Positions 1 to 12,313 of a stretch of DNA of 39,244 nucleotides are shown here, piece after piece; the stretch's first letter is position 1, and each line of letters opens with the position of its first letter. The translations under genes were made by a program, and so were the position numbers. The notes beneath the pieces were generated by a model. It worked only from the letters and a program-made list of their open reading frames with translations. It was not told where the DNA came from and did not search any database. The stretch is from a virus: the UHGV virus genome UHGV-0144129; one strand, given 5' to 3'.

Positions 1-202
1 TTACGTTTATCATGTTAACTCATCATTATTACATCATCACTGTAAATAATTAAATTAACTTCCATAACATTAAAATATGTATCCACTGACGCTTTTTTAC
101 ATAACGAAGAATTGACCATTTTGTCCTGTTGTGCCTTAATGTAAGTACCGTCCACGGCGTGGGACATACTTCAAGGAACCTTTTGTGAGTCAGGCAACCA
201 GT

Positions 203-376
203 ATGCGAAAACGACACCGATTTAACAGTCGCATGACCCGTATCGTACTGCTCATCAGCTTTATCTTCTTCTTTGGCCGTTTTATCTACTCGTCCGTCGG
301 TGCCTGGCAGCACCATCAGAGCAAAAAAGAAGCTCAGCAATCCACACTCTCCGTCGAATCACCGGTACAACGTTAG
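203..376 (+). CDS. small single-TM membrane protein (host)
   Basis: ORF track 185-376 begins with GTG; first in-frame ATG at 203. One hydrophobic helix (IVLLISFIFFFGRFIY) and a polar tail. No family recognised. Confidence 0.3.
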   Translation: MRKRHRFNSRMTRIVLLISFIFFFGRFIYSSVGAWQHHQSKKEAQQSTLSVESPVQR

Positions 377-686
377 CGGTTACCTTCTCCACTCTCACAG
401 AACATAACGGCACCTCGCTGTCGGATGCTTTTGCTCTTTGAGATTATCAAAGCGGCAGATATTCTTTCATCTTAAATTTTACGTTTTTGTTCTGACTGAA
501 GTTCATCCTGTTCGGCTGCGAAATAAATACATCATTAATACATATGTTGTGATGATGTATTTTTATAAATTATTTCCCGCATGAATTTTAATAAATTTAA
601 TCTATTCCTTTATACGCAATACATTTACTTTCCTCTTTTGATGATCTTAAATGTCTCATTTTTCGTAATGTGTATAACAAGGAATA

Positions 687-1205
687 GTGATGAAATTTAA
701 AAAATGTCTTCTGCCTGTGGCAATGTTAGCGTCATTCACTCTGGCAGGATGCCAGTCAAATGCTGATGATCATGCCGCCGATGTTTATCAAACCGATCAA
801 CTGAATACCAAACAAGAAACTAAAACCGTTAATATTATTTCCATTCTTCCCGCAAAAGTTGCCGTAGACAACGCCCAAAATAAACGGAACGCACAAGCCT
901 TCGGCGCGCTTATTGGCGCTGTCGCTGGCGGTGTTATCGGCCACAACGTCGGGTCTGGCAGCAATTCCGGAACGACAGCAGGTGCAGTTGGCGGCGGAGC
1001 TGTTGGCGCAGCAGCGGGTTCTATGGTGAATGATAAAACCTTAGTGGAAGGTGTTTCTTTAACATATAAGGAAGGCACCAAAGTGTATACCTCCACCCAG
1101 GTGGGTAAAGAGTGCCAGTTTACGACAGGTTTAGCCGTTGTTATTACCACGACGTATAACGAAACGCGTATTCAGCCAAATACCAAATGTCCTGAAAAGA
1201 GCTAA
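687..1205 (+). CDS. outer-membrane lipoprotein, glycine-zipper type
   Basis: Signal peptide ending in lipobox LAGC. Long Gly/Ala zipper (GALIGAVAGGVIGHNVGSG...) typical of OsmB/YcfJ-like lipoproteins. The antisense ORFs over it come from the same Gly/Ala-rich repeat. Confidence 0.6.
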   Translation: MMKFKKCLLPVAMLASFTLAGCQSNADDHAADVYQTDQLNTKQETKTVNIISILPAKVAVDNAQNKRNAQAFGALIGAVAGGVIGHNVGSGSNSGTTAGAVGGGAVGAAAGSMVNDKTLVEGVSLTYKEGTKVYTSTQVGKECQFTTGLAVVITTTYNETRIQPNTKCPEKS

Positions 1206-1220
1206 TAATCAGGAGGAGTC

Positions 1221-1760
1221 ATGAAGAAAGTTTTTCTTTGCGCCATCTTAGCCTCCTTAAGCTATCCGGCTATCGCCTCATCATTGCAGGATCAACTCTC
1301 GGCTGTCGCAGAAGCGGAACAGCAAGGTAAAAATGAAGAGCAAAGGCAGCATGACGAATGGGTCGCGGAGCGCAACAGGGAAATCCAGCAAGAGAAGCAA
1401 CGTCGCGCAAACGCCCAGGCCGCGGCTAATAAAAGAGCGGCAACGGCAGCAGCGAATAAGAAAGCTCGTCAGGATAAACTGGACGCCGAAGCCACTGCGG
1501 ACAAAAAACGCGATCAAAGTTATGAAGATGAGCTACGTAGCTTAGAGATTCAGAAACAAAAACTGGCGCTGGCGAAAGAAGAAGCCCGCGTCAAGCGCGA
1601 AAACGAATTTATCGATCAGGAACTGAAGCACAAAGCTGCGCAAACCGATGTGGTGCAATCTGAAGCTGACGCAAACAGAAATATGACTGAAGGCGGTCGC
1701 GATCTGATGAAAAGCGTGGGTAAAGCAGAAGAGAACAAATCGGACAGCTGGTTTAATTAA
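1221..1760 (+). CDS. secreted coiled-coil protein (DUF1090-like)
   Basis: SD aggagg 8 nt upstream of ATG. Signal peptide (..AIASS), then a K/E/Q/A-rich heptad-like sequence. Family assignment is from memory of composition only. Confidence 0.45.
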   Translation: MKKVFLCAILASLSYPAIASSLQDQLSAVAEAEQQGKNEEQRQHDEWVAERNREIQQEKQRRANAQAAANKRAATAAANKKARQDKLDAEATADKKRDQSYEDELRSLEIQKQKLALAKEEARVKRENEFIDQELKHKAAQTDVVQSEADANRNMTEGGRDLMKSVGKAEENKSDSWFN

Positions 1761-1800
1761 TCGATGTAAGTAACTTCAAGCCTATAATTCTTGAAGATAA

Positions 1801-1835
1801 AAAACCCTCTGTAGTAACAGAGGGTTTTGTTCATT
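1801..1835 (+). terminator. rho-independent terminator after the host gene pair
   Basis: aaaaccctctgt-agtaac-agagggtttt hairpin followed by a T-run. Confidence 0.55.
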
Positions 1836-2087
1836 CATAGTGCAGGGATCAAAATCATTCCCACTCAGCTATCAATGAGAAAATAAAATATAAATAAATC
1901 AATGCATTGAAACAAACCACTTAGCAGATACCACGAAAAATACCATGTCTCAATAATAGAGCTGTCTACAGGCTGTTCAGACGAACAATATGGCCGCTCT
2001 ACTCCTAATAGAGTCCTTAGCTCGGTCACATCACTAATTTCAACATAGATGTGAACAAAATGAGGCATCAACGCACCTATTCAGTTA

Positions 2088-3602
2088 GTGTATTTGATAT
2101 CGTATGTGGCAACAAAAAATGGAGTTACAATCTTGAAAGTAAGCGAGTTATCTAGCCAAATTGGCCGACTTTACGGCTTAAACAACATCAACATAATTAT
2201 GGGCCGAAACGGTGCGGGAAAAAGTCGTTTCCTTCGTGATATCGAACAAACAATCAGCCAGAACAAGCAGCAATTTTATGTCCGGTATGTAAGTCCAGAG
2301 CGAGCAGGATCGTTCAAGCGTGATGGCACCGTCCTCACAAATATGAGCGACAACCCCGAATGGCTGAGGCACACTCGGGCAGTTAATCAGGCAAGCAACT
2401 TCAAAGCTGCATCGGCTATGCTATTTCGCGAGGCCGAGACGCTTTACTTACGTCGACTTGCCAATACTCCGGAAATTCGAACTGATCTAACGCGAAACTT
2501 TCAGACAGACCGATTAAGTAAAATTAATCAGCTTCTCACTAACATTTCGCTCGAGATGGGTAATGTCGATTATGAGTTTCGATCACTTGTAGATGGTCAG
2601 ATTATTGATCCGGCCCAAATCAGTAGCGGTGAATCGGAAGCGGTTGCATTAGCCGCGGAAATCATCTATTTCTTCGACACAATAGATCCGGAGAAATTCA
2701 ACGTACTCCTCCTCGATGAGCCTGATGTACATCTGCACCCCGACCTCCAAGCTAGACTGGGCAAGCTGATAATCAGTATGCTCGACGAATTTAGAACACA
2801 CGCGAACAGTATTGCCATATGCTTATCCACCCATAGTTCCCCGCTCGTCTGTTCTCTTGCCGCCTCCCCATATGTATCAATCGGCACGAAGAGCTTTGCA
2901 GTGAATGAAATCTCATTGATACCGGCCAGCGATGAACTTCGAAAGATTGCACCATTCTTCGGGCACCCCCTATCGCTTTCTCTTAGCGAAGACGCTGCAT
3001 TAATTTTGGAAGGAGAGGACGACGAACGAGTCTGGCAACAAGCGGCCAGAACATCACAGGGTCGAATAAAAATCTTTCCCGTACTAGCAGGTAGCGTAGA
3101 TCAACAGAGTCAACTTGAGGATTTTTGCGTAGACCTCCTTAGTACACTCTATGACAATCCAATCGCCTTTTCCCTTCGTGATGGCGATGGTGTAATCAAC
3201 GAGTCGCTTGAACATCGCCTACCTCTTAAACGCTATCGCTTACGATGCTACGCTATCGAAAATGTTCTTTTGACTGATTCATGCCTTGCAGTAATGAATG
3301 TTACATGGGTGGAATTTGTAGACGCAGCCAAAAAATGGGTTGAGGATAATCAAACACACTCCGACATAGCGTTGATTGCAAAACTAATGGAATCGAACGA
3401 CCGATTGCGTCACAAGAAGATCAAGAAAATCCGCCAACTCGTCTGTGCTATTGTTGAGTGTAAAAAACCTTGGGAGGTAGTAGTTGGACAAGCAATCGGG
3501 GCATTGACCAGAGAAGACCTTGAAAACTCGAATATGTTGATCGATTTTCTTGGAGGAGAGATGGTCAGCGACGTCATCTTCAGGGACGCAATAAACCCAT
3601 GA
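2088..3602 (+). CDS. OLD-family-like ABC ATPase with Toprim-like nuclease domain (GajA / AriAB-like), putative anti-phage defence protein
   Basis: Walker A GRNGAGKS, ABC signature SSGESEAVALAAEI, Walker B VLLLDEPDVHLHP, H-loop LSTHS. C-terminal half has a Toprim-type glutamate (LILEGEDDE) and a DxD (LRDGDGV) about 60 aa later. Start uncertain: GTG at 2088 or TTG at 2133 preceded by GGAG. Confidence 0.55.
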   Translation: MYLISYVATKNGVTILKVSELSSQIGRLYGLNNINIIMGRNGAGKSRFLRDIEQTISQNKQQFYVRYVSPERAGSFKRDGTVLTNMSDNPEWLRHTRAVNQASNFKAASAMLFREAETLYLRRLANTPEIRTDLTRNFQTDRLSKINQLLTNISLEMGNVDYEFRSLVDGQIIDPAQISSGESEAVALAAEIIYFFDTIDPEKFNVLLLDEPDVHLHPDLQARLGKLIISMLDEFRTHANSIAICLSTHSSPLVCSLAASPYVSIGTKSFAVNEISLIPASDELRKIAPFFGHPLSLSLSEDAALILEGEDDERVWQQAARTSQGRIKIFPVLAGSVDQQSQLEDFCVDLLSTLYDNPIAFSLRDGDGVINESLEHRLPLKRYRLRCYAIENVLLTDSCLAVMNVTWVEFVDAAKKWVEDNQTHSDIALIAKLMESNDRLRHKKIKKIRQLVCAIVECKKPWEVVVGQAIGALTREDLENSNMLIDFLGGEMVSDVIFRDAINP

Positions 3603-3617
3603 GAATGACCTGATACT

Positions 3618-4013
3618 ATGACCACGATTGATCCGCCCTCATGGTATCAGTATTTATTTTATAACCCGCCTCTCAATACACCAAGAGATTGCGGTAAAGT
3701 GGAGCAGCATGATTACCAGCTTTATCTGGCGATAAATGATATTGAGCATACGAAAACGAAAGCAATGTCATCTAAGACCAATAGTATCTGCGAGCAGTTC
3801 CATAAAACGATACTGAACGAGTTTTATCAGGTGACGTTCCGCAAAAAGTTATATGATGATCTTGAAGCATTACAATCGGTTCTTGATGAATGGCGGGTTC
3901 ACTATAATAATGAGCGAACCCATCAGGGAAAAATGTGCAGTGGCCGAACGCCGATGGAAACGTTACTTGATGGAAAGCACATCTGGGATGAGAAAAACTT
4001 AAGCCAGATGTAA
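3618..4013 (+). pseudogene. C-terminal remnant of a DDE (rve-type) IS transposase
   Basis: KTNSICEQFHKTILNEFY ... YNNERTHQGKMCSGRTPMETL resembles the C-terminal end of an integrase-core domain (IS481/IS3-like). No N-terminal HTH or DDE core upstream. No inverted repeats recognised. Confidence 0.4.
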
Positions 4014-4100
4014 TCTGACAGATACCTTTATAAATAGCCGGTAATTGTCAGATCAGGTCTGATCTAATACAACTTAACTGTGTTATGAGCAATACTGAGG

Positions 4101-4877
4101 ATGGATATGGAACCAGAGAAATTTGCTGAAACTGCAATAGGATTTACCAAAAGCCCTCTTGGTATCATTGCACTCTTTATTGTTCTCGTTTATGGATTTG
4201 CCTCTTTCGTCGTTGGCTTTGGTAATGGCTTATCAGAGCATATAGCTCCCCTTATTTATTTCATGGTTTTCTTTCCTGTCATTGTGTTTCTTGGCTTTCT
4301 CTGGCTTGTTGCGAAACATCATAATAAGCTTTACGGGCCGTCAGATTTCAAAGATGAAAATAATTTTTTAAGAGCGCAAATAGCTACAGCAGCATCATTG
4401 ACCGCCGCCACAGCAAAACAGCCTGAAAATAGTGCAGGGGTCACTGAAAGCCAACTGCGAAAAATCGTCAACGTTGTATCCAATGCAAAACGGCAGAGTA
4501 AGCATGAAAAATGGCGAAATCGTATTTTATGGGTGGATGATCGACCAGAAAATAATGTTTACGAAAGACAGGCATTTGAGGCACAGGGAATAGAGTTCGC
4601 TTTAGCTCTTTCAACTGACGAAGCCTTAGAATTGTTAAAAACAAATAAGTTTGCAGCTATTATTTCGGATATGGATCGCAAAGAAGGGGCGCAAGAAGGT
4701 TATGTCTTACTAGAAAGATTACGCGCAATGGGAGACAAAACTCCTTTTATGATCTATGCGTCCTCAGATCTACCAGAGCACAAGAGAATGGCGAGAGAAA
4801 GAGGTGCAATTGGCTCCACTAATCGAGCAGAAGAACTCTTTCAAATTGTCATGGGTGCGATTACCAATGGCTCATAA
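4101..4877 (+). CDS. two-TM membrane protein with C-terminal CheY-like receiver (REC-like) domain
   Basis: Two hydrophobic helices at the N-terminus. C-terminus reads beta1 ILWVDD, beta3 AAIISDMDRKEG (Asp at acceptor position), beta4 FMIYASS, then a Lys-containing segment. AT-rich codon usage. Confidence 0.45.
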   Translation: MDMEPEKFAETAIGFTKSPLGIIALFIVLVYGFASFVVGFGNGLSEHIAPLIYFMVFFPVIVFLGFLWLVAKHHNKLYGPSDFKDENNFLRAQIATAASLTAATAKQPENSAGVTESQLRKIVNVVSNAKRQSKHEKWRNRILWVDDRPENNVYERQAFEAQGIEFALALSTDEALELLKTNKFAAIISDMDRKEGAQEGYVLLERLRAMGDKTPFMIYASSDLPEHKRMARERGAIGSTNRAEELFQIVMGAITNGS

Positions 4878-5092
4878 CAAAGCCATTAAATTCGCCCCCT
4901 ACGGCTACGGTTGCCGGGCGCTCACAACGGCCAGTATCTCATTTGTCGATTTGATCGATCTCATTGTAAGCACTTCCGGCTAGACTGTTTTGGAATACCG
5001 CCATTTTGTTGGTAATGGCTTTTATCTTTAGGCCATAGCCGATGTTATAGAGTTACGGCCTTAAAAATAGAAGTCATACACTCAATGAAAAA

Positions 5093-5130
5093 CCAATAAA
5101 AAATGCCAGTCAGCAAACTGACTGGCATTA
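5093..5130 (-). terminator. rho-independent terminator closing the phage late/lysis operon
   Basis: Perfect hairpin aatgccagtcag-caaa-ctgactggcatt. On the minus strand it is followed by a T6 run. Confidence 0.55.
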
Positions 5131-5273
5131 AAGTTAGTTGGAAAGGCTTAATTTACTATTTATAGCCAGTCCTACTCCCACTCAATTATTTACGGCATGC
5201 ATAACCAATTGACTGGTAACAACTTTCTGTAACCTTATTTTCACCGTACCGTTTTATATACCGTCACCGGAAA

Positions 5274-5771
5274 TCAGTGCCACGATTTTTGCTTCTTCAG
5301 TGAATCGTATTGCTGCTCGCAGAATTCCCCTGCGATACGATACTTTTCAGCCTCAGCTGCTGTTGCGTTGTAAACTCGGTTGCTTTCTTCAAGCATGTCG
5401 GCGAGCACACCGATGACCTTGCTGGCTGGCGTGCCAGGGGGGAAAGATCCGGTATAGTGTTCGGCGAGCCGCCTGGTTTTGTCAAGCTCGGCGCGCATGC
5501 TGTCAGCAGCGGAATTAGCATACTCAGCATCAGCACGCGCCGCATCGATACGGGATTGTGCTTCACGTTCAATTTGTGTTTTCTCCTGCTCACGCTGTGA
5601 CCTTAACTTATCATCAGCCTGTTTCTGATCTTCCTTCGCCTGAGCATACCCGGCATCGTACTGGCGGCTGCCATGCACATTCCAGGCAACAACGCAGCTG
5701 GCCACCAGAGCAGCAAGCATCGACACGATAAGCAACTGTTTCCAGTATGCTTTCACGAATGCCTTGATCAT
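5274..5771 (-). CDS. Rz-like i-spanin
   Basis: N-terminal TM (LLIVSMLAALVASCVVAW) then a charged coiled coil. Last gene of the lysis cassette. ATGA overlap with the upstream gene. Confidence 0.6.
   Translation of the reverse strand: MIKAFVKAYWKQLLIVSMLAALVASCVVAWNVHGSRQYDAGYAQAKEDQKQADDKLRSQREQEKTQIEREAQSRIDAARADAEYANSAADSMRAELDKTRRLAEHYTGSFPPGTPASKVIGVLADMLEESNRVYNATAAEAEKYRIAGEFCEQQYDSLKKQKSWH
5297..5545 (-). CDS. Rz1-like o-spanin lipoprotein, embedded in the +1 frame of Rz
   Basis: Internal Met of ORF 5297-5593 gives MRRVLMLSMLIPLLTAC with lipobox LTAC, followed by a Pro-rich mature part. Lies entirely inside Rz. Confidence 0.5.
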   Translation of the reverse strand: MRRVLMLSMLIPLLTACAPSLTKPGGSPNTIPDLSPLARQPARSSVCSPTCLKKATEFTTQQQLRLKSIVSQGNSASSNTIH

Positions 5772-5992
5772 ATACTTACCTTCGGCTGAAATCGGCGAAC
5801 GTTAATTGGCTCACCATATGGCCATGACCAATTCAGCCAGGTAAATGTTTTCAGCTCGCACATCGCATCGAAAAATTCACCAGGATCGATGTCGGAATAG
5901 CTGCAAACTATTTCCAGACCACGTTCTGTTTCTTGCAAAGCAACTGTATCTGTTTCCCAGCGGGGAATGAGCAAAGAAAATAGTTTATTCAT
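5768..5992 (-). CDS. hypothetical protein, translationally coupled between endolysin and Rz
   Basis: Start ATG at 5992 overlaps the endolysin stop (ATGA); its own stop overlaps the Rz start. 74 aa, Trp-rich, no family recognised. Confidence 0.4.
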
Positions 5993-6615
5993 AAAAGCAC
6001 CTTCTTGGCCGAAAGATACCGTACACGGCGATCGTCGATGCCGTTCCGGCCACCATTGATAATCAGAGTTACACGTGCAATATCGCCGGTATACTTCATG
6101 CATCCTTTGCTGGCGAAGAACCACGCCGCGCTACGAGCCGCGTATTCGTCCTGCACCAACAGTTCAGGATTCTCCAGCAGGTCCACTTTCAGGCCGTTTC
6201 CGCAATCACGATAGTTATTCAAACCGGTAATCTGGATAAGTCCGCGGCCACGGTAATTCCAGCCATCACCAGAGGCATTGTTCCCCATGCGTTTGCTGTA
6301 CACCAGATTGGCAATCGCACGCTGGCGCTCAGGTGGCAATGGTGGCTCGCCTGCACGACGACCCAATGCGTTAGCCTGTCCCTGAGTAAGACGACCGGCA
6401 CGAACGAAGTTAGCCAGTCCGGTGACGCTGTAATTGAAATTCTCCTGCAACCTGGTGAAGCCACCAGACTCATGCCCGACCTGAGCAATAAACATTGCCT
6501 GATCTTCGGGTTTTCTGATACCAAACTCTTTCATCGCAGAAGTTATATGCGAGAACCAGCGTGCGGCCAGAGCCTCGCTAATACCAGCAGCTCGCTGGAA
6601 TTGTTTAATCTCCAT
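5989..6615 (-). CDS. endolysin, glycoside hydrolase family 19-like
   Basis: Internal Met ([11 protein letters not shown]...) preceded by [16 protein letters not shown] matches the GH19 catalytic-region signature (AQxxHETGG). Follows the holin-like genes. Confidence 0.7.
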
Positions 6616-6913
6616 GTTTAGACCTCGATGTTTTGAAAATCTGAACAACGTTACCGCGTGTTTTAATAACCGCGGCAAGCATGACAGCGTTGATAATGAC
6701 CTCAGATAAATCCACAGCCATTGGCGTACGTAACCAGATTGCATAGGCGACACGAACAGGAATACTGGCCGCAGCAACAATAAGGAAATAAGCAAGCCAC
6801 CCTCCCCATCTTCGATGTTGAGAGCCGTTACGCCGGAATGTGACAACGCGAATTGCTATGCCAGTACAAATAATTGCATTGGTGATAAGCAAAACAAGCT
6901 CATTAGTTACCAT
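6605..6913 (-). CDS. holin-like small membrane protein
   Basis: 102 aa with 2-3 predicted TM helices and a basic C-terminus. Overlaps the endolysin start by 11 nt. Confidence 0.45.
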
Positions 6914-7313
6914 CGCCTTTTCTCCCAGGAATTAACTGGCGTGGATTATCAGAACGGTGATAGAGCCATATACCAATTCGCACTGCGACAATTGCTGACA
7001 CGAATGCGCCAGCAGAGAAAACAATCCCTTTCTCGAAAGAGTCCTGCGTGATGGTAGGTATCATGCTGGCTATTCCGATAAGAATTGATGTTGTTGGTTT
7101 GTAAAAGAGAAGACCACAAAGAAAGCTGAGTATCGACAAGAGTACACGACGACGAACAGGATACTCTACAGCAGAGGTAACAAATATTACCGCACCAGCC
7201 AGAGCACCGAGAGCCACCTCTGGCGGAACGCCGTAGACGACAGAGGCCAGCGCACCCAAGCTTAACCCTTGATTCAGTGAATCCGCCGTAACCGTGCCAT
7301 TCATGGTAACCAC
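6903..7313 (-). CDS. holin/antiholin-like membrane protein
   Basis: 136 aa with several hydrophobic helices, immediately downstream of the tail fibre gene and upstream of the endolysin. Confidence 0.4.
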   Translation of the reverse strand: MVTMNGTVTADSLNQGLSLGALASVVYGVPPEVALGALAGAVIFVTSAVEYPVRRRVLLSILSFLCGLLFYKPTTSILIGIASMIPTITQDSFEKGIVFSAGAFVSAIVAVRIGIWLYHRSDNPRQLIPGRKGDGN

Positions 7314-7401: not shown

Positions 7402-10053
7402 TTATTTTGATTCCAATAGTTCGAGTCGCTCTTCAATACGATCGCATCGGCGGCGCTGATATGCAGCCTCAAGCCAAGCGCACTGGTCAGGCCGTATGCC
7501 CCATGAACTACCCGCTTTTTTAACCAGCCTCTGTTCTCCGGTGTCATATTCGACGGTGACCAACTCACCAGACGCATCGGTAATCTCTTTAGTCGCGATT
7601 ACCGGCTCAAAAATATCGTCCCACTCGTCATAGCAAAGAAGGCCAAATCTGGTTCCATCAATTCCGTGCGCCAGGAATACATCTCTTACCTGCTGAGCCA
7701 TGACGCCAAAATGCCATCTGGCACCATCGCCCTTCATGGATATAGCGTCGAGCCATCGATACGCCACAACAGAAATATCGCCCCAGGCATCAAGAATGCT
7801 GTCTCTATCAGAAGAAAGCATTTCACTTAAATCTGATATTGCCTCGGGATTGGTTTTCAGCGTGGCATCTGATGAAACGGTTGGGGCATTTGCAAAGTAG
7901 GCGTCTTTAATACGAAACGATGCCTGACCAAAATTATAGGTATTGTCAGCAAACGGGCGAAGACCTGTATTATAAAACCGCCAGCGTATGGTTCCTCCCA
8001 ATGCTGTCGGGTCGCTGTTGCATGCAATATCCACCGTGGTGGCAGACCTAAACACAGAAGAACTACCGCCCAATACCAAGCTATTTGCGCTAGCTGTAGC
8101 CTGCTGGTCAAGGACCAATATTTTCTGAGAGTTTGTAGTTGCACCGGCATATGATGATGCAGTGATGCGGTTTAATTGGTTTGTATCAGGATCTGCGTTT
8201 TGCTGAATGGTTAAGTTAGATGCCCACTGTGCCGGTCGCTGGCGCACAAATACAAAGTCACCAGAAGGATTAGTTGCAACCAAATAACTAATGCCACTAT
8301 CAGATGAATAATAGTTGACTATAAAAGTCTGATTATTCGCATTCAGTATTTCAACATATGTGCTGGAAGGGATTGCCACGCCAGATATATCAGCAATGCT
8401 GACAGTCCCTGTGTAAAAATTAAATGCCTTCTGACTCATCTCCTGCATATAGCGAAGAATTTCAGTCATGTTAGTGAACAACGTACCATCTACAGGGTTA
8501 ACAATCCCCTTCGCACTACGGGGATATACCCCAATGCTCGCGTGATCGATATCAAATCCGCGGTAAAGCCTGGATGCAGGTGTAAAATCGATAGCATCTT
8601 TATCAGTGGAGAAATCTTCGAAAATAACCAAACCTGAATTGTAAGGTTCAGAGCCAGTTCTTTCCTGATGAATGTAAAGTGAATAAATGGATTTTCCATC
8701 CTGAGAAACACAAACGCCTTCATTTTCTATGCGAGTGACGTTCAATCCTGCGGCTTTCATTAAATCCATCATGGCCTGAGGATGAAGCATTGATTCAGTT
8801 CGCTTTGTACCGTCAGGGTTAAAAACTTTGCTGCCCTGATATTCGTTATATCCTGCGCTTCCTGCCCCATCAGCTATGAAGCCGCCATAGCCGCAGACAA
8901 AGTAGTTATCACCTACCGCAATACCCTGACGCTTGTTGAAATAAGGCGCATAAGGTGAGGTGCTTTTAGTTACATACCCAACATCATGTAACGGCAGCGT
9001 TATAGTTGACAGGCGATTGAAACCACTGTCGAACACTGCAAGTACAGTTCTTGTGATTTTCTGTCCTACTTCTGGCGCATTCTGCTCAACGAGCCATATA
9101 CCTCTTCTGTAGCTGAACTGGTTGAATAATCCAACATCATGGTTTTGTACAAGAGGCAGATTGCTTCCGTATAATGCCCCCTCCATATTAAATTCACGCA
9201 GTATTCCGTTTGTGTGACCAACAAACATTTTTTTTGGGCCATAGTCTGACGTAACCACGATTCCTTCAGCAGCGAAGCCTGGGCCGCCAGCCTGAACATA
9301 GAAATAACCTTGATAAATACCAGATATGTTAAATACTGCGACGACATTATTCGTCTGTTTAGGCTCAAATGGATAAGTGATGTATATCAAATCTTCGCTA
9401 ACGCAGAATCCTTGAGGATACATATAAGTTGCTGACGGGTTAGCAGCCATAATCGCATCATATTCAGGAAAAAGAAGCGGCATCGTAGCTACAATCTTTC
9501 TTTGGTGATTTGTAAAAATATCGTTTTTAGCGCTGTTAGGTGTAGGCGTTACACCTCCAGTAAAAAGATCATCAACATAACCTTTATTGACAGCATCGTT
9601 TCTGTCAGTGGCATTTGCTAGATTTGATATCTTATTATTTTTTGCATCATAATAGTTAGCCAGAATGCTTGGTTTTATAAGTGCTAACCTCATCCATGAA
9701 AAACACTTTTGAATAAGCATTGTCAGTTTATCGAACGCGTCTTCATGTACCTCAGCGAAGAACTTACCCTGATTACGCAAATCAGTATCCTGCGTAACCG
9801 GGAGCTCTCGTGATATAGAAATATGATAACCGTTAGCCAACGCCTTCGACAGAATTACATTACCGCCATTATATCCTCCAGCATTGGTTACTGTGTAGTC
9901 AGTATCCAGAACCAATTCTGTTACGTTCCCGTTCAGGTCAGACACCTGAACAACCAGGTCGGATTTTTTGAAAATACGGAAGGTATACGGAAATGATGTC
10001 GTAGCTCCGTTACCAGTGTATTCGTTGTGGTCAACTTCGGTTGAGACCGTCAT
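7402..10053 (-). CDS. tail fibre / tailspike with T7 gp17-like N-terminal anchor and C-terminal intramolecular chaperone (S74-type) domain
   Basis: N-terminus (YTGNGATTSFPYTFRIF...LDTDYTV) follows the T7 gp17 tail-attachment pattern. C-terminus (WHFGVMAQQVRDVF...GIDGTRFGLL) matches the auto-cleaving chaperone domain of endosialidases and L-shaped fibres. Position is after the internal virion genes, as in T7. Confidence 0.7.
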   Translation of the reverse strand: MTVSTEVDHNEYTGNGATTSFPYTFRIFKKSDLVVQVSDLNGNVTELVLDTDYTVTNAGGYNGGNVILSKALANGYHISISRELPVTQDTDLRNQGKFFAEVHEDAFDKLTMLIQKCFSWMRLALIKPSILANYYDAKNNKISNLANATDRNDAVNKGYVDDLFTGGVTPTPNSAKNDIFTNHQRKIVATMPLLFPEYDAIMAANPSATYMYPQGFCVSEDLIYITYPFEPKQTNNVVAVFNISGIYQGYFYVQAGGPGFAAEGIVVTSDYGPKKMFVGHTNGILREFNMEGALYGSNLPLVQNHDVGLFNQFSYRRGIWLVEQNAPEVGQKITRTVLAVFDSGFNRLSTITLPLHDVGYVTKSTSPYAPYFNKRQGIAVGDNYFVCGYGGFIADGAGSAGYNEYQGSKVFNPDGTKRTESMLHPQAMMDLMKAAGLNVTRIENEGVCVSQDGKSIYSLYIHQERTGSEPYNSGLVIFEDFSTDKDAIDFTPASRLYRGFDIDHASIGVYPRSAKGIVNPVDGTLFTNMTEILRYMQEMSQKAFNFYTGTVSIADISGVAIPSSTYVEILNANNQTFIVNYYSSDSGISYLVATNPSGDFVFVRQRPAQWASNLTIQQNADPDTNQLNRITASSYAGATTNSQKILVLDQQATASANSLVLGGSSSVFRSATTVDIACNSDPTALGGTIRWRFYNTGLRPFADNTYNFGQASFRIKDAYFANAPTVSSDATLKTNPEAISDLSEMLSSDRDSILDAWGDISVVAYRWLDAISMKGDGARWHFGVMAQQVRDVFLAHGIDGTRFGLLCYDEWDDIFEPVIATKEITDASGELVTVEYDTGEQRLVKKAGSSWGIRPDQCAWLEAAYQRRRCDRIEERLELLESK

Positions 10054-10156
10054 GTTAAATCTCCAGATAGTCGCAGCACCCGTTGCGCCGCATATCTGGT
10101 TATTCTATTACCTGAAAAACCACATATGGATAGATAATCCATAAATACGAAAAGAT

Positions 10157-10173
10157 ATTACCTTTCAGGTGAT
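10157..10173. promoter_or_regulatory. operator-like imperfect palindrome ATTACCT-TTC-AGGTGAT (family A)
   Basis: Member of a recurring TTACCT-N3-AGGTAA family. Lies about 50 bp upstream of the LexA box. Confidence 0.4.
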
Positions 10174-10209
10174 TTGCAAAACGTGCTGGATAGCAAACAA
10201 ATTATTTGC

Positions 10210-10229
10210 TACTGTATAAATATACAGTT
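10210..10229 (+). promoter_or_regulatory. LexA (SOS) box
   Basis: TACTGTATAAATATACAGTT is CTGT-N8-ACAG with an AT-rich spacer and TA flanks; 18 of 20 match the E. coli consensus TACTGTATATATATACAGTA. It sits about 20 bp upstream of the ATG at 10249. Confidence 0.65.
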
Positions 10230-10248
10230 ATTGCATGGAGAAGATAAG

Positions 10249-10506
10249 ATGCAGCAGTATCACTATCCACTGGAAGACGGATTTACCGAAAGGATTCACA
10301 CGCCGGGAGGCGTCAGGTCACTGGTGGAGGGATCGCACTTGATGAAATTACTCCGGGATCTCGATAAGGATGGATTTAATGTCGATGGCCCACTTGCCGA
10401 ACTGACTGCACTGATTAACTACGTCACCAGCTCACAGATGTCTATGCGGGATCTGCAAACACATCTCGACTATTGTGCCGAACAATTACGAAAACAAACC
10501 CGGTAA
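10249..10506 (+). CDS. SOS-controlled mini-antirepressor (stand-alone copy of the Ant C-terminal domain)
   Basis: GGAG 8 nt upstream of ATG. The 85 aa product aligns over its whole length with the C-terminal about 80 aa of both Ant proteins (PLxxGxxxxIHxPxGV...DGxxVxGxxAELTxxxxYxxxxxxxxRDxQTHxxY). Confidence 0.55.
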   Translation: MQQYHYPLEDGFTERIHTPGGVRSLVEGSHLMKLLRDLDKDGFNVDGPLAELTALINYVTSSQMSMRDLQTHLDYCAEQLRKQTR

Positions 10507-10528
10507 ATTTAAAGGCCGCAAGAGCGGC

Positions 10529-11257
10529 CTATCGTTTCGCTTTGTGCTCATCCCAGCACGTTTTGCACCATGCCATTAAGCCGTCCGCATTTTGATTATT
10601 AGGGTAAAAGCTGGTTCGTTTTCTGCGGACATTACAAATTGGGCACCACTTCATATGGCGTGTATTCTTTGGGCCATCGAGACACCTTGCACACCATTTA
10701 GTCAATCCATCTGGATTTTTTGACGATTTCCTGAATTTTTCATATGGAAGGTTTATTCTGCATCGCAAGCACTGCTTGCTACCACTTGAAACTCTGTTAG
10801 CTGATTCTTCTTTTGGCGGCGATACAGAAGGTATTCTTGCTGGCTCTGATATTGCCTGAGGTGCTTTTTTAGATGACTGAGACGATATGTCATCACCAGG
10901 GAATCTTCCATGATATGCCGGACGCGTTGACACTCCAGGTGGAATCTCAGCTGTAAACGGCTTTGGCTGAATCAGTTGCCTCTCTTTTGCTAACTCCTGC
11001 TGTTTATAATATGTCTGGATTACCGCACTATCATAAGCAGGAGGTGCGGAAATATTAGGCGCATTACCTCCAGTTTTTTGAAACTGAGTAGAGGTGTGTT
11101 CTATCACCTGTGTACGATTAATCGTTATCTCCCCATCTTCGGTCTTTATCGTTTTGTTATGATTAACGACCGTACGATCAGAGATCTTAGTCTTGTTCTG
11201 GTTGATAACGTAAATAATCACCGCAACCACACCAACAACTATCCAGAAAACTTCCAT
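10529..11257 (-). CDS. membrane-anchored protein with tandem zinc-ribbon motifs
   Basis: SD GAGG before ATG. N-terminal TM helix, Pro/Ser-rich linker, then two repeats of a P/ADGLxxWCxxC unit with extra CxxC pairs. Transcribed immediately before the tail fibre gene. Confidence 0.5.
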   Translation of the reverse strand: MEVFWIVVGVVAVIIYVINQNKTKISDRTVVNHNKTIKTEDGEITINRTQVIEHTSTQFQKTGGNAPNISAPPAYDSAVIQTYYKQQELAKERQLIQPKPFTAEIPPGVSTRPAYHGRFPGDDISSQSSKKAPQAISEPARIPSVSPPKEESANRVSSGSKQCLRCRINLPYEKFRKSSKNPDGLTKWCARCLDGPKNTRHMKWCPICNVRRKRTSFYPNNQNADGLMAWCKTCWDEHKAKR

Positions 11258-11276
11258 TGCTTTTCCTCACAATAAC

Positions 11277-11293
11277 ATTACCTTAAAGGTAAT
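11277..11293. promoter_or_regulatory. operator-like perfect palindrome ATTACCT-TAA-AGGTAAT (family A), with an adjacent half-site at 11301-11311
   Basis: Perfect 7-3-7 inverted repeat 20 bp upstream of the ATG of the minus-strand gene ending at 11257. A TTTCAGGTGAT half-site follows 8 bp later. Confidence 0.45.
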
Positions 11294-11656
11294 ATCTTGC
11301 TTTCAGGTGATCAAGCGTTAAACGTAATCAACCAAATACGGTTGATTTTAATATTTCTTCGCGTTTATCATTACCTTTGCGGTAAATTTACATTGCACTC
11401 CTCTTGTGCCATAGTAATCGGGCACTGGCAAAATCCAGTGCCGGGATTGGTCTCCCGGATTACTAAGTGGCGCATACCACGCCAGACGTGGTTTTTTTAT
11501 GCGTATAGCACAGTCATGCCAGAATTATGGTGGGCTGAATGGGGGTCCGAAAGGACGCCGGTACCACTTAGGCCGGTAAGACCAACTCCGTTCAGTTCAC
11601 CACCATCTGATTGGTCTCAGCGGTGGTGATGTAATTCGCTAAGTGGAGACGCCATC

Positions 11657-12313
11657 ATGAACGCTCAACTCATCCCCGTATTCAACGGCACTATATCTAA
11701 CGAAACAGCCCTACTTTGTAATGCCCGCGATCTGCACGCTTTTTTAGGTGTTAAAAAGGTGTTTGCAGCATGGATTACAAATCGCATATCAGAATACGAA
11801 TTCATTGAAAATCAAGACTATATTTTGCTTTCCAATTTGGGAAAGCAAACATCTGGTAGAGGCGGCCACAACCGCAAAGAGTACCACCTCACCCTTGATA
11901 CAGCCAAAGAGCTGGCGATGGTCGAGCGTAACGAAAAAGGTCGCCAGGTGCGACGCTACTTCATTGAATGCGAGAAACGTTTAAGACAACAAGAAACAAA
12001 AGTGGAGAAGGTCTTGTCAGGCTTCATGCCCGCCATTATGGAGGCGATCAAGCTGGAAGACAAAAAAGAATACAGCGCCCCACTGAAGCCCGGCTACCGT
12101 AGCCTGATTCATTCGCCGTCTGGTGTTCTCGGCCTGACGGAGAACTCACTGCTGATGAATTTGCTGAACCAGTTACAGGAAGACGGGCACGATGTATCGG
12201 GCGCGGCGGCGGAGCTGACCACCATGTTCTGCTACATCGTTGGTGTGAGCAAATGCCTGCGTGATATCCAGACGCACGCGGAGTACATCAACGACAAGGC
12301 AGGATTCTTCTGA
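11657..12313 (+). CDS. antirepressor-like protein (second Ant; Bro-N/ORF6N-like N-domain plus shared Ant C-domain)
   Basis: N-terminal region ([22 protein letters not shown]...) resembles phage antirepressor / Bro N-terminal domains. The C-terminal 80 aa are near-identical to the C-terminus of the Ant at 13323-14267. Confidence 0.55.

Follow-up and report, generated by a model that had tools for sequence, protein, structure and literature searches.

PARIS, Class 4 of the OLD superfamily, consists of an ABC ATPase, AriA, and a DUF4435/Toprim protein, AriB, and it includes clades in which the two are merged into a single gene, AriAB. The acidic residues of AriB are E26, D30, D88, E90 and E122 (PMC11464382). 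Class 1 of the superfamily comprises P2 Old, Thermus scotoductus OLD, Vibrio cholerae Vc OLD and Escherichia coli YbjD, with 500–600 aa as the operational length cut-off (PMC12392090). Gabija GajA and retron Eco8 OLD represent Classes 2 and 3, respectively. Whether lone OLD-type genes suffice for defence is still an open question in reviews (PMC10568477). The window analysed here, the whole 39,244-nucleotide stretch of UHGV virus genome UHGV-0144129, encodes a single-chain protein that, judging from profile matches and a structural model, is probably a divergent, compact, fused PARIS-like member of this superfamily. The gene and its flanking elements are as follows.

1868–2132, plus strand: conserved leader of 265 bp, including the GGAG at 2121–2124, defined by cross-genus alignment.
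2133–3602, plus strand: ATPase-Toprim CDS, 489 aa from a TTG start; the mechanical ORF runs from 2088; AF2 mean pLDDT 79.5.
3610–3660, plus strand: hairpin resembling an intrinsic terminator, CUGAUACUAUGA...UCAUGGUAUCAG with a U-rich tail after it; RNA fold −18.9 kcal/mol, z = −3.9.

The ORF listing gives a plus-strand frame of 504 aa at 2088–3602 that starts with GTG. All the motifs quoted in a first-pass annotation (GRNGAGKS, SSGESEAVALAAEI, LLLDEPDVHLHP, LSTHS, LILEGEDDE and RDGDGV) were found in its translation. The GTG start itself was not borne out and was rejected in favour of TTG 2133, which is most likely the true start of a 489-aa protein. This is the start of the RefSeq CDS (WP_000868467.1, 489 aa, whose present label is just 'AAA family ATPase'), it is preceded by a GGAG ribosome-binding site, and it agrees with the starts of the homologues. 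The sequence M-K-x-x-E-L opens most aligned homologues at this position, including all those from Enterobacterales and Pseudomonas, and nine of the ten orthologous CDSs examined have a TTG/CTG-type start codon there.

The leader aligns from its first base with the corresponding sequence in Serratia (89%), Klebsiella (82%), Enterobacter (73–78%) and Pseudomonas (67%). It had no match in Rfam, and positions 1–5400 gave a sub-threshold Qrr match and nothing else. A regulatory RNA in the leader gained no support: the RNAalifold covariation term was positive (penalising), only 2 of 43 pairs were compensated and Rfam gave no match. Nor was there support for an upstream ORF, whose ATG is not kept in Pseudomonas, or for a minus-strand ORF (1865–2071), which is broken by indels in other genera. 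A simple sigma-70 scan found no promoter in the leader. At the other end of the gene, the inverted repeat of the terminator is likewise found 3' of the gene in Pseudomonas aeruginosa and Vreelandella. With its conserved leader, conserved TTG and own terminator, the gene is a self-contained monocistronic unit.

Homologues of the protein number in the hundreds. The gene is under strong purifying selection (dN/dS 0.05–0.14), and neither half shows any variation in its catalytic residues across 82 diverse homologues; together these findings indicate that it is functional and rule out a pseudogene or decaying remnant. Considering the Pfam scores, the number of homologues and the selection, the ORF and its motif set are far beyond chance.

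The N-terminal half contains the complete set of motifs of an OLD-superfamily ATPase (Walker A, signature, Walker B and H-loop).

2133–2915, plus strand: ABC-ATPase domain, aa 1–261, with Pfam AAA_15 and AAA_21 above their cut-offs; it contains the next four features.
2202–2225, plus strand: Walker A.
2622–2639, plus strand: signature SSGESE.
2706–2741, plus strand: Walker B/D-loop, LLLDEPDVHLHP.
2826–2837, plus strand: H-loop.

The scores were 53 bits for AAA_15 (E = 5e-14, cut-off 32.1) and 45.6 bits for AAA_21 (E = 1e-11, cut-off 27). In an alignment of 82 diverse homologues, 27–52% identical to the window protein, residues K30, S31, S164, D195, Q206 and H234 are invariant. The domain carries a conserved insertion of about 100 aa (aa 55–160), in part of which the model confidence is low. 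A profile search of the PDB retrieved AriA as the best match (1.2e-15), followed by retron PtuA, Eco8 OLD and GajA, and the alignments to Eco8 OLD and GajA extend from Walker B to the Toprim glutamate. The best PADLOC match of the whole protein was PDC-M01A (62 bits), covering aa 32–265 only; being confined to the ATPase domain, it was rejected as a guide to the architecture.

The C-terminal half has the glutamate and DxD of the OLD-superfamily Toprim, both invariant across the same 82 homologues.

2985–3272, plus strand: Toprim core, aa 285–380, with LILEGEDDE at 3000–3026, RDGDG at 3177–3191 and IEN at 3255–3263.
3273–3599, plus strand: C-terminal helical domain, aa 381–489, pLDDT >90.

In the AF2 model, the strand bearing E293 is followed by a helix, a strand, a helix and the strand bearing D350xD352, the canonical Toprim topology. 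[quoted passage not shown] The expected Toprim signal in profile searches was obtained narrowly. The window protein reached 13.1 bits with DUF4435 (PF14491; E = 0.08), where the cut-off is 27, the value of Rousset et al. 2022, and had no match to OLD-like_TOPRIM (PF20469) at E ≤ 1. Among the 82 diverse members, 29 matched DUF4435 (E ≤ 0.1; best E = 1.7e-5) and four matched OLD-like_TOPRIM (best E = 2.7e-4).

When the C-terminal half was compared alone with PADLOC models, AriB (23.9 bits, E = 9.5e-6) and AriAB were the sole families matched; OLD and GajA models were not. Fold comparison of this half gave AriB, TsOLD, BpOLD and XccOLD as top matches. The spacing of its acidic residues agrees with that of the five acidic residues of AriB, so that the likeness to AriB combines structural similarity with five predicted acidic metal ligands. 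Family-wide Pfam scans, PADLOC models and Foldseek thus point to AriB of PARIS as the closest relative of the C-terminal half, followed by the OLD nucleases. Interdomain geometry in the AF2 model is moderately confident (pTM 0.62).

A PDB search with a profile of 10 diverse C-terminal halves returned only noise, with no solved AriB/OLD chain. A phmmer search with the C-terminal domain, run on 1.84 billion representatives, retrieved scarcely anything but its own family in the best 150 of 238 matches; on the same best 150 of 238, the helical domain is nearly confined to an architecture of about 485 aa (238 clusters at 50% identity). A sequence-only tie of the C-terminal domain to solved structures was rejected on these two results. 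Support for the link to AriB/OLD therefore comes from family HMMs and fold comparison. The DUF4435 score, far under the Pfam cut-off, the lack of an OLD-like_TOPRIM match, the failure of the C-terminal profile to retrieve a solved AriB/OLD chain and the moderate confidence in the interdomain geometry count against the reading as a fused PARIS-like nuclease.

Alternatively, the protein could be a conventional Class 1 OLD like P2 Old, TsOLD and Vc OLD, a lone gene whose Toprim domain attacks DNA by nicking or degradation, with only superficial kinship to PARIS. The absence of a conserved partner fits this reading, which we nevertheless regard as unlikely: PARIS components score best for both halves, the C-terminal half matches no OLD or GajA model in PADLOC, and OLD-like_TOPRIM is found in far fewer family members than DUF4435. 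The protein is also shorter than the 500–600 aa of Class 1, although this is a marginal miss of a heuristic range (489 aa; family typically 480–500). The nearest kin are therefore AriA and AriB of PARIS and not P2 Old or GajA; the first-pass annotation had named the latter two alongside fused PARIS AriAB.

Two features lie downstream of the terminator within the islet.

3690–4013, plus strand: IS481-family transposase remnant, C-terminal fragment only (NCBIfam transpos_IS481, 9e-23; Pfam rve_3).
4101–4877, plus strand: membrane-anchored orphan receiver-domain protein (Pfam Response_reg, 1.8e-7, aa 142–237).

No GajB-like helicase lies downstream, as had been observed, and the next feature is the IS481 remnant, which RefSeq treats as a pseudogene without its N-terminus. 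Among the neighbours in the window, no helicase and no PADLOC match were found, the receiver-domain protein included. The first-pass annotation had left two alternatives, a lost partner or a single gene. Clustering of about 48 loci across phyla detected no recurring neighbour around the ATPase-Toprim gene, and since the gene also has its own conserved leader and terminator, these comparisons indicate a single-gene system from which no partner has been lost.

A two-gene system would need as partner either the receiver-domain protein or a GajB-like gene that the IS481 insertion has destroyed. The receiver gene does follow on the same strand at a distance of 500 bp, the ATPase and receiver pair is 93–97% identical between E. 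coli and Klebsiella aerogenes, and a transposase remnant separates the two genes. However, only E. coli and K. aerogenes islets have a receiver gene beside the ATPase, a conserved terminator parts the two genes, guaA directly follows that terminator in P. aeruginosa and Vreelandella, and other genes follow it in Serratia and Enterobacter. Together with the clustering of the loci and the lack of helicase or PADLOC matches among the neighbours, this leaves the two-gene reading largely refuted and highly improbable. The receiver gene is extra cargo of the islet and not a partner of the ATPase-Toprim gene.

The islet in which the gene resides is delimited by two copies of an att core.

1855–1867, no strand assigned: displaced native guaA 3' end, the outer att-core copy and left islet boundary (TCATTCCCACTCA, reverse complement of ..GAGTGGGAATGA).
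5172–5186, no strand assigned: inner att-core copy (CTACTCCCACTCAAT), the right islet boundary and left prophage boundary.

Islet-free E. coli genomes match the window up to 1867 only and then run into guaA. In prophage-free strains, it is the inner core copy that acts as the actual guaA 3' end (..GAGTGGGAGTAG). The left junction, T(C/T)A(T/C)TCCCACTCA followed by GCTATCAAT, is intact in K. aerogenes and P. aeruginosa and degenerate in S. marcescens and two Enterobacter species. The core itself, GAGTGGGA, has copies at 1859–1866 and 5176–5183 and is the att core of the GIsul2 family at the guaA end (PMC9376610). Between the boundaries (1868–5171), the islet contains only the ATPase-Toprim gene, the IS481 remnant and the receiver gene; no tyrosine integrase of its own was found there, and the integrase adjoining guaA is that of the prophage (WP_021537587.1).

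The gene had been placed at the prophage/chromosome junction as prophage cargo, between a host terminator and the lysis operon. The host terminator (hairpin 1801–1828) and the lysis genes (from 5274) are real, and the gene lies outside the prophage att boundary. In UPEC132, the three-gene islet is found between yfgI and guaA with the prophage absent; the reverse-strand stop codon of guaA starts at the equivalent of window position 5172, and the match stops at 5186. The ATPase-Toprim gene was detected in 28 of 5,426 complete E. coli genomes and is thus rare and accessory in this species; most of the 28 carry the islet without the prophage. The islet is independent of the adjacent prophage and older than it. 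Prophage cargo was rejected on these grounds, tblastn having also found no homologue in 50,697 phage records. A plasmid-borne origin was likewise rejected, as the sole match in 72,556 plasmid records was a 4.9-Mb chromosome filed as a plasmid. The surrounding DNA had been described as AT-richer, which is weakly the case (GC 0.41–0.46 over 2000–5000); the same AT-richness is seen in the host genes yfgH and yfgI on the left.

The guaA islet recurs in Klebsiella, Serratia, Enterobacter and Pseudomonas, and in Vreelandella the gene is also located at guaA. The smallest such islet, in P. aeruginosa, measures 1.9 kb and contains the ATPase-Toprim gene alone. Between the window and K. aerogenes, dS is 0.22 for this gene and 0.82 for the neighbouring guaA. 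From this distribution and these dS values, the islet appears to be accessory and mobile. It resembles GIsul2-family islands and CR2-sul2 in its insertion into the last bases of guaA with core copies on either side. Like CR2-sul2, which is mobilised in trans by the GIsul2 integrase (PMC9376610), it has no integrase of its own. It differs from GIsul2 in carrying none of the GIsul2 genes. The guaA 3' end serves as a stacking site, each newly integrated prophage or ICE pushing an old att-flanked islet outward, which shows how a defence gene can mimic prophage cargo; the same context may reveal defence cassettes mobilised in trans.

By analogy with PARIS, P2 Old, Vc OLD and Gabija, we infer an anti-phage function, control of the nuclease by the ATPase and a nucleic-acid substrate. 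In this reading, an AriA-like ABC ATPase (aa 1–261) shares one chain with an AriB/DUF4435-like Toprim nuclease that ends in a helical domain (aa 285–489). The ATPase half, probably oligomeric through the conserved insertion of about 100 aa, would keep the putative two-metal Toprim site (E293, D297, D350, D352 and E376) inactive until ATP-dependent sensing of an infection-associated cue. The nuclease would then cut nucleic acid and abort the infection, with tRNA (the AriB substrate) or DNA (that of OLD and GajA) as the candidate substrate. With both halves in one covalent chain, activation would have to be conformational and could not proceed by effector release as in two-gene PARIS. A defence gene of a known kind is thus plausible by analogy. 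We found no paper mentioning WP_000868467.

Several observations count against a defence reading. The family is absent from the 50,697 phage and 72,556 plasmid records; phages or satellites are the typical carriers of P2 Old and PARIS. The gene usually lies outside defence islands. It is also unusually conserved for an immune sensor, with a dN of 0.12 in the comparison of E. coli and P. aeruginosa, below the 0.24 of guaA.

Might the gene instead serve the islet, through addiction or stabilisation, exclusion of rivals for the guaA att site, or nucleic-acid processing? It occupies the same distal position in the guaA-att islets of five genera, with differing cargo on its guaA side, and both its very high conservation and its absence from phages and plasmids are in keeping with such a role. 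OLD-family proteins without a defence function also exist, such as the archaeal ATPase Cran1 (PMC12796447). In Alphaproteobacteria, however, the gene is a lone insertion away from guaA and usually has no mobile-element genes nearby, and in Vreelandella the order is reversed, with the gene adjoining guaA and the other cargo distal. No recombinase or partner is conserved, and all characterised bacterial relatives are defence effectors. We therefore consider a non-immune role improbable.

Returning to a PARIS-like defence enzyme, a broader scenario can be outlined, to which we give little credence. The family might form a distinct clade among single-chain PARIS-like enzymes, compact and unusually conserved, with about 200 aa fewer than the merged AriAB known so far. 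In Gammaproteobacteria, an integrase-less, att-flanked mini-islet at the guaA 3' end might have it as signature cargo. Co-resident prophages, ICEs or GIsul2-type islands would then supply guaA-specific integrases acting in trans, by which the islet would pass from genus to genus as a cis-mobilisable defence cassette. If this were true, the strong conservation would reflect sensing of a conserved host-side perturbation and not of a fast-evolving phage protein.

If active, the protein would represent a minimal single-polypeptide form of PARIS/OLD logic, with sensing and nuclease gating inside one 489-aa chain. It would then be a tractable model of ABC ATPase control over Toprim effectors and another lone OLD-type gene sufficient for defence.

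Among known systems, the protein shares with PARIS an ATPase for which AAA_15 and AAA_21 both score above the Pfam cut-offs, and an AriB-like fold in the nuclease half. It differs in its DUF4435 score (13 bits, cut-off 27), and only about 12% of residues are identical to AriB. The PADLOC AriAB model was matched with 50.8 bits (E = 2.6e-14) over positions 220–523 of 694 only, suggesting that the 489-aa window protein has far shorter N-terminal and coiled-coil parts than this 694-position model. The fused chain would also make release of AriB from an AriA hexamer impossible, and the family was not found on phages or satellites, unlike PARIS. The merged-AAA_21 rule as published has a cut-off of only 20 bits, so a defence-finder tool may well call the window protein. 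With Class 1 OLDs, it shares the lone gene; it differs from them in lacking matches to OLD-like_TOPRIM and, in its C-terminal half, to the Old model, and both of its domains are nearer AriA and AriB. GajA and Eco8 OLD gave the best whole-chain Foldseek matches (8u7i_A, 8e-9, and 9lpa_B, 1.9e-8). In contrast to Gabija, the gene is followed by a terminator, the IS481 remnant and the receiver-domain gene, and a helicase occurs in no related locus cluster. In contrast to retron-associated OLDs, no reverse transcriptase was found among the annotated neighbours and no msr/msd ncRNA by Rfam in positions 1–5400.

The gene was first read as an ORF of 504 aa from a GTG (2088..3602, +), and every ATPase-Toprim motif quoted in the first-pass annotation is present in its translation. 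Window positions 1-6000 are 100% identical to Escherichia coli strain P4 (NZ_CP072688.1), and the host is E. coli. In P4, RefSeq labels the product 'AAA family ATPase' (WP_000868467.1, 489 aa) and starts it at window position 2133. We accept 2133, in place of the GTG at 2088, as the most likely start, because a TTG there is preceded by GGAG (2121-2124), homologues share an MKxxEL N-terminus and the start region is conserved across genera. MKxxEL lies at this position in most of 38 aligned homologues, including all those from Enterobacterales and Pseudomonas; several Alphaproteobacterial entries in the alignment have longer annotated N-termini. The stretch '..GGAGTTAC.ATCTTGAAAGT' is kept at the start region in Klebsiella, Serratia, Enterobacter and Pseudomonas, TTG is the start codon in all six DNA-aligned sequences (E. 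coli, Klebsiella, Serratia, two Enterobacter and Pseudomonas) and in the Vreelandella orthologue, and the Methylobacterium and Rhodoplanes CDSs open with a Leu codon (TTG/CTG-type). Such a conserved weak start would fit a need to keep the amount of a potentially toxic product low. The best-conserved non-coding stretch is the 3' ~90 bp of the 265-bp leader; neither an RNA structure nor a uORF found support in the leader. Residue numbers refer to the 489-aa protein unless the 504-aa ORF is stated.

Residues 1-261 form an ABC-type ATPase. Both Pfam profiles that the first-pass annotation had named for this half, AAA_15 (E=5.5e-14) and AAA_21 (E=1.3e-11), matched above their curated cut-offs. When a profile of 82 diverse family members was compared with solved structures, the top match was AriA of PARIS (1.2e-15), followed by retron PtuA-type ATPases, the retron Eco8 OLD nuclease (4.8e-12) and GajA (7e-12), and the Eco8 OLD and GajA alignments run from Walker B to the Toprim glutamate. 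An insertion at residues 55-160 is conserved and poorly predicted in the monomer AlphaFold2 model.

The expected Toprim or DUF4435 signature was borne out for part of the family and only narrowly for the window protein. DUF4435 was matched by 29 of the 82 members (best 1.7e-5) and OLD-like_TOPRIM by four in a Pfam scan, whereas the window protein alone stayed below threshold for DUF4435 (E=0.08, over aa 307-401 in the numbering of the 504-aa ORF) and did not match OLD-like_TOPRIM. For ten diverse members, the last 228 residues were also run against PADLOC: AriB (seven of ten; 9.5e-6 for the window protein) and fused AriAB were the sole families matched, and none of the models for GajA, Old, AbiLii, mad4 or the retron I-B Toprim was. 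The canonical Toprim order is seen in two AlphaFold2 models, one of the full-length chain (pLDDT 79.5) and one restricted to residues 262-489 (pLDDT 85, pTM 0.83): a strand ending at E293, helix, strand, helix, a strand ending at D350-G-D352, and a helical domain. Foldseek ranked AriB first (2.2e-3) and the C-terminal region of Xanthomonas OLD second, and placed the whole-chain model nearest to GajA and Eco8 OLD.

This C-terminal domain defines a tight family, with 238 clusters at 50% identity among 1.84 billion representatives. Among the matches listed, most full-length members have 480-500 aa with the domain at about 270-480, and the remainder consist largely of short fragments, plus a few longer proteins. 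The phyletic spread of full-length relatives covers Proteobacteria, Cyanobacteria, Bacteroidota, Actinomycetota, Verrucomicrobiota and CPR bacteria. Across the 82 members (27-52% identical to the query), the invariant residues are K30/S31 (Walker A), S164 (signature), D195 (Walker B), Q206 and H234/S235 (H-loop) in the ATPase and E293, D350 and D352 in the Toprim domain, where E376/N377 are nearly invariant. Together with these residues, the high identity among Enterobacterales, Pseudomonas, Rhizobiales and Sphingomonadales homologues (66-94%) and a Nei-Gojobori dN/dS of 0.05-0.14 (in comparisons with Alphaproteobacteria, synonymous sites are saturated) indicate strong purifying selection. Despite this, the gene is accessory in E. 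coli (28 of 5,426 complete genomes). The family was absent from 50,697 phage and 72,556 plasmid records. Very high conservation and absence from phages and plasmids are atypical, and leave room for a sensor of a host cue or a function serving the element.

The following features lie downstream of the gene:

3610-3660, terminator-like hairpin and U-tract after the ATPase-Toprim gene (z=-3.9)
3690-4013 (+), C-terminal fragment of an IS481-family transposase, between that terminator and the receiver gene
4101-4877 (+), receiver-domain orphan, 258 aa for the ORF as called, 256 aa if begun at 4107 as in RefSeq

The first-pass annotation had suggested either a lost partner or a single-gene system. 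Clustering of every ORF up to 5 kb from the gene, in about 48 loci, showed no recurrent neighbour save guaA/guaB in Gammaproteobacteria; this and the gene's own hairpin and U-tract, also kept in Pseudomonas and Vreelandella, argue against a lost partner. No helicase, reverse transcriptase or ncRNA was found nearby, in agreement with the reported absence of a GajB-like helicase. In Sphingobium and Mesorhizobium the gene is inserted alone between housekeeping genes, and in Microvirga it is closely followed by transposase and integrase genes. The ATPase-Toprim gene is thus a single-gene system from which nothing has been lost. The receiver gene accompanies it in E. coli and K. aerogenes only (96.7% DNA identity between the islet copies). 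Its product has a C-terminal Response_reg domain (1.8e-7; weak cREC_REC match, 5.7e-3) and a hydrophobic N-terminus that, read by eye rather than with a prediction tool, is probably membrane-spanning; it lacks an output domain, matches no PADLOC model and has no kinase encoded nearby. Equal spacing suggests that the K. aerogenes locus also holds the IS481 remnant, so that the islet seems to have gained its right-hand part separately and at an older date. An Rfam match to Qrr at 5096-5165 (-) is sub-threshold, with 24 bits where the gathering score is 50 (E=0.36); it overlaps a strong bidirectional terminator hairpin (5102-5129) and is almost certainly due to chance.

The gene had been taken for prophage cargo. 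In P4 the order is yfgG, yfgH, yfgI, ATPase-Toprim gene, IS481 remnant, receiver gene, prophage (lysis genes to integrase) and guaA, but UPEC132 and many other strains lack the prophage, and in them the same three-gene islet sits immediately between yfgI and guaA, which rules that reading out. Islet-free E. coli genomes match the window only to base 1867 and then run into guaA, which places the att copies:

1855-1867, TCATTCCCACTCA, displaced native guaA end
5172-5186, CTACTCCCACTCAAT, second att copy, the guaA terminus in prophage-free strains and the prophage boundary in the window

In prophage-free E. coli, the islet provides a surrogate guaA terminus, GAGTGGGAGTAG in place of GAGTGGGAATGA. 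The two att copies at 1855-1867 and 5172-5186 share TCCCACTC (GAGTGGGA read on the opposite strand), the att core of GIsul2-family islands, whose integration site is the 3' end of guaA (PMC9376610). K. aerogenes and S. marcescens, as well as P. aeruginosa and two Enterobacter species, keep the left junction '...TCCCACTCA|GCTATCAAT...' and the 265-bp leader after it. Since the islet occurs without the prophage, is flanked by att copies and shares its junction across genera, the gene is part of an old integrase-less islet flanked by att cores and shifted outward by later integrations. Its trans-mobilisation by guaA-specific integrases is plausible, as this was demonstrated for the att-flanked CR2-sul2 unit (PMC9376610). 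For E. coli against K. aerogenes, the gene has a dS of 0.22 and adjacent guaA one of 0.82; for E. coli against P. aeruginosa, dN is lower for the gene (0.12) than for guaA (0.24). Transfer between genera appears more recent than host divergence.

The stretch from the gene to guaA differs among hosts. It is empty in P. aeruginosa (islet of 1.9 kb) and in Vreelandella (core-flanked islet of ~4.6 kb with other cargo upstream of the gene); E. coli and Klebsiella have the receiver gene there, Serratia a HipA toxin module and Enterobacter genes of no known function. An extra element is stacked beside guaA in E. coli P4 and Enterobacter mori (prophage) and in another P. aeruginosa strain (ICE). At the loci compared (window 1855-1867 and 5172-5186; fetched loci L004/L005, L008, L074, L076 and L009), the guaA 3' end acts as a stacking site for the mini-islet, other small units and a prophage or ICE, parted by TCCCACTC core copies. 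In E. bugandensis (L074), a core copy at position 6500 directly follows the ATPase gene and precedes a second one-gene unit. In P. aeruginosa L004, the first gene (7885-11910, -) of the stacked ICE (TrbI, DUF2274) is a possible defence gene in its own right, encoding a 1,341-aa HTH and STAND-type NTPase.

The prophage (~5187-39244) has podovirus-like features in the P4 annotation (T7 gp14-family core protein, Bbp16 capsid cement protein, a large tail fibre at 7402-10053), a lysis cassette at 5274-7313 (two holins, GH19 endolysin, DUF2514) and an integrase adjoining guaA past the window end. A very similar lysis cassette adjoins the orthologous ATPase-Toprim gene in E. mori (L076). The prophage also carries one tRNA gene:

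31103-31179 (+), tRNA-Arg(UCU)

Phage tRNAs can counter tRNA-cleaving defences such as PARIS, but tRNA-Arg(UCU) is also a common rare-codon supplement. Because this gene lies ~1.9 kb further along than collinearity with P4 predicts (31103 versus about 29232), the window probably comes from another strain or the prophage has an indel.

PARIS uses its ATPase, AriA, to sense the trigger and its Toprim nuclease, AriB, to cleave tRNA (PMC11464382, PMC12409363), and Class 1 OLDs require both ATPase and Toprim residues in vivo (PMC10568477, PMC12392090). By analogy with these characterised relatives, we propose that the ATPase half, probably oligomeric via the insertion, would keep a two-metal Toprim site inactive; an infection cue would lift this inhibition in an ATP-dependent manner, and the nuclease would then cut tRNA or DNA and abort infection. 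As the two halves are fused, activation would have to be conformational rather than by effector release.

No paper in the literature mentions WP_000868467. The identification is about what a specialist would expect from the motifs; less expected are the guaA-att islet context and the unusual conservation. Under the context-based scheme the gene is a single-gene Class 1 OLD, its product slightly below the Class 1 length range. By domain similarity it is nearest to Class 4, PARIS, of which merged single-gene forms have already been described; the PADLOC AriAB model is about 200 residues longer, and the protein falls below the Pfam cut-offs for both DUF4435 and OLD-like_TOPRIM. We file it as a probable divergent member of the OLD/PARIS ATPase-Toprim effectors, an assignment explicitly short of a demonstrated PARIS system. 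The AriB metal ligands E26, D30, D88, E90 and E122 (PMC11464382) are matched in order, with similar spacing, by the acidic residues E293, D297, D350, D352 and E376.
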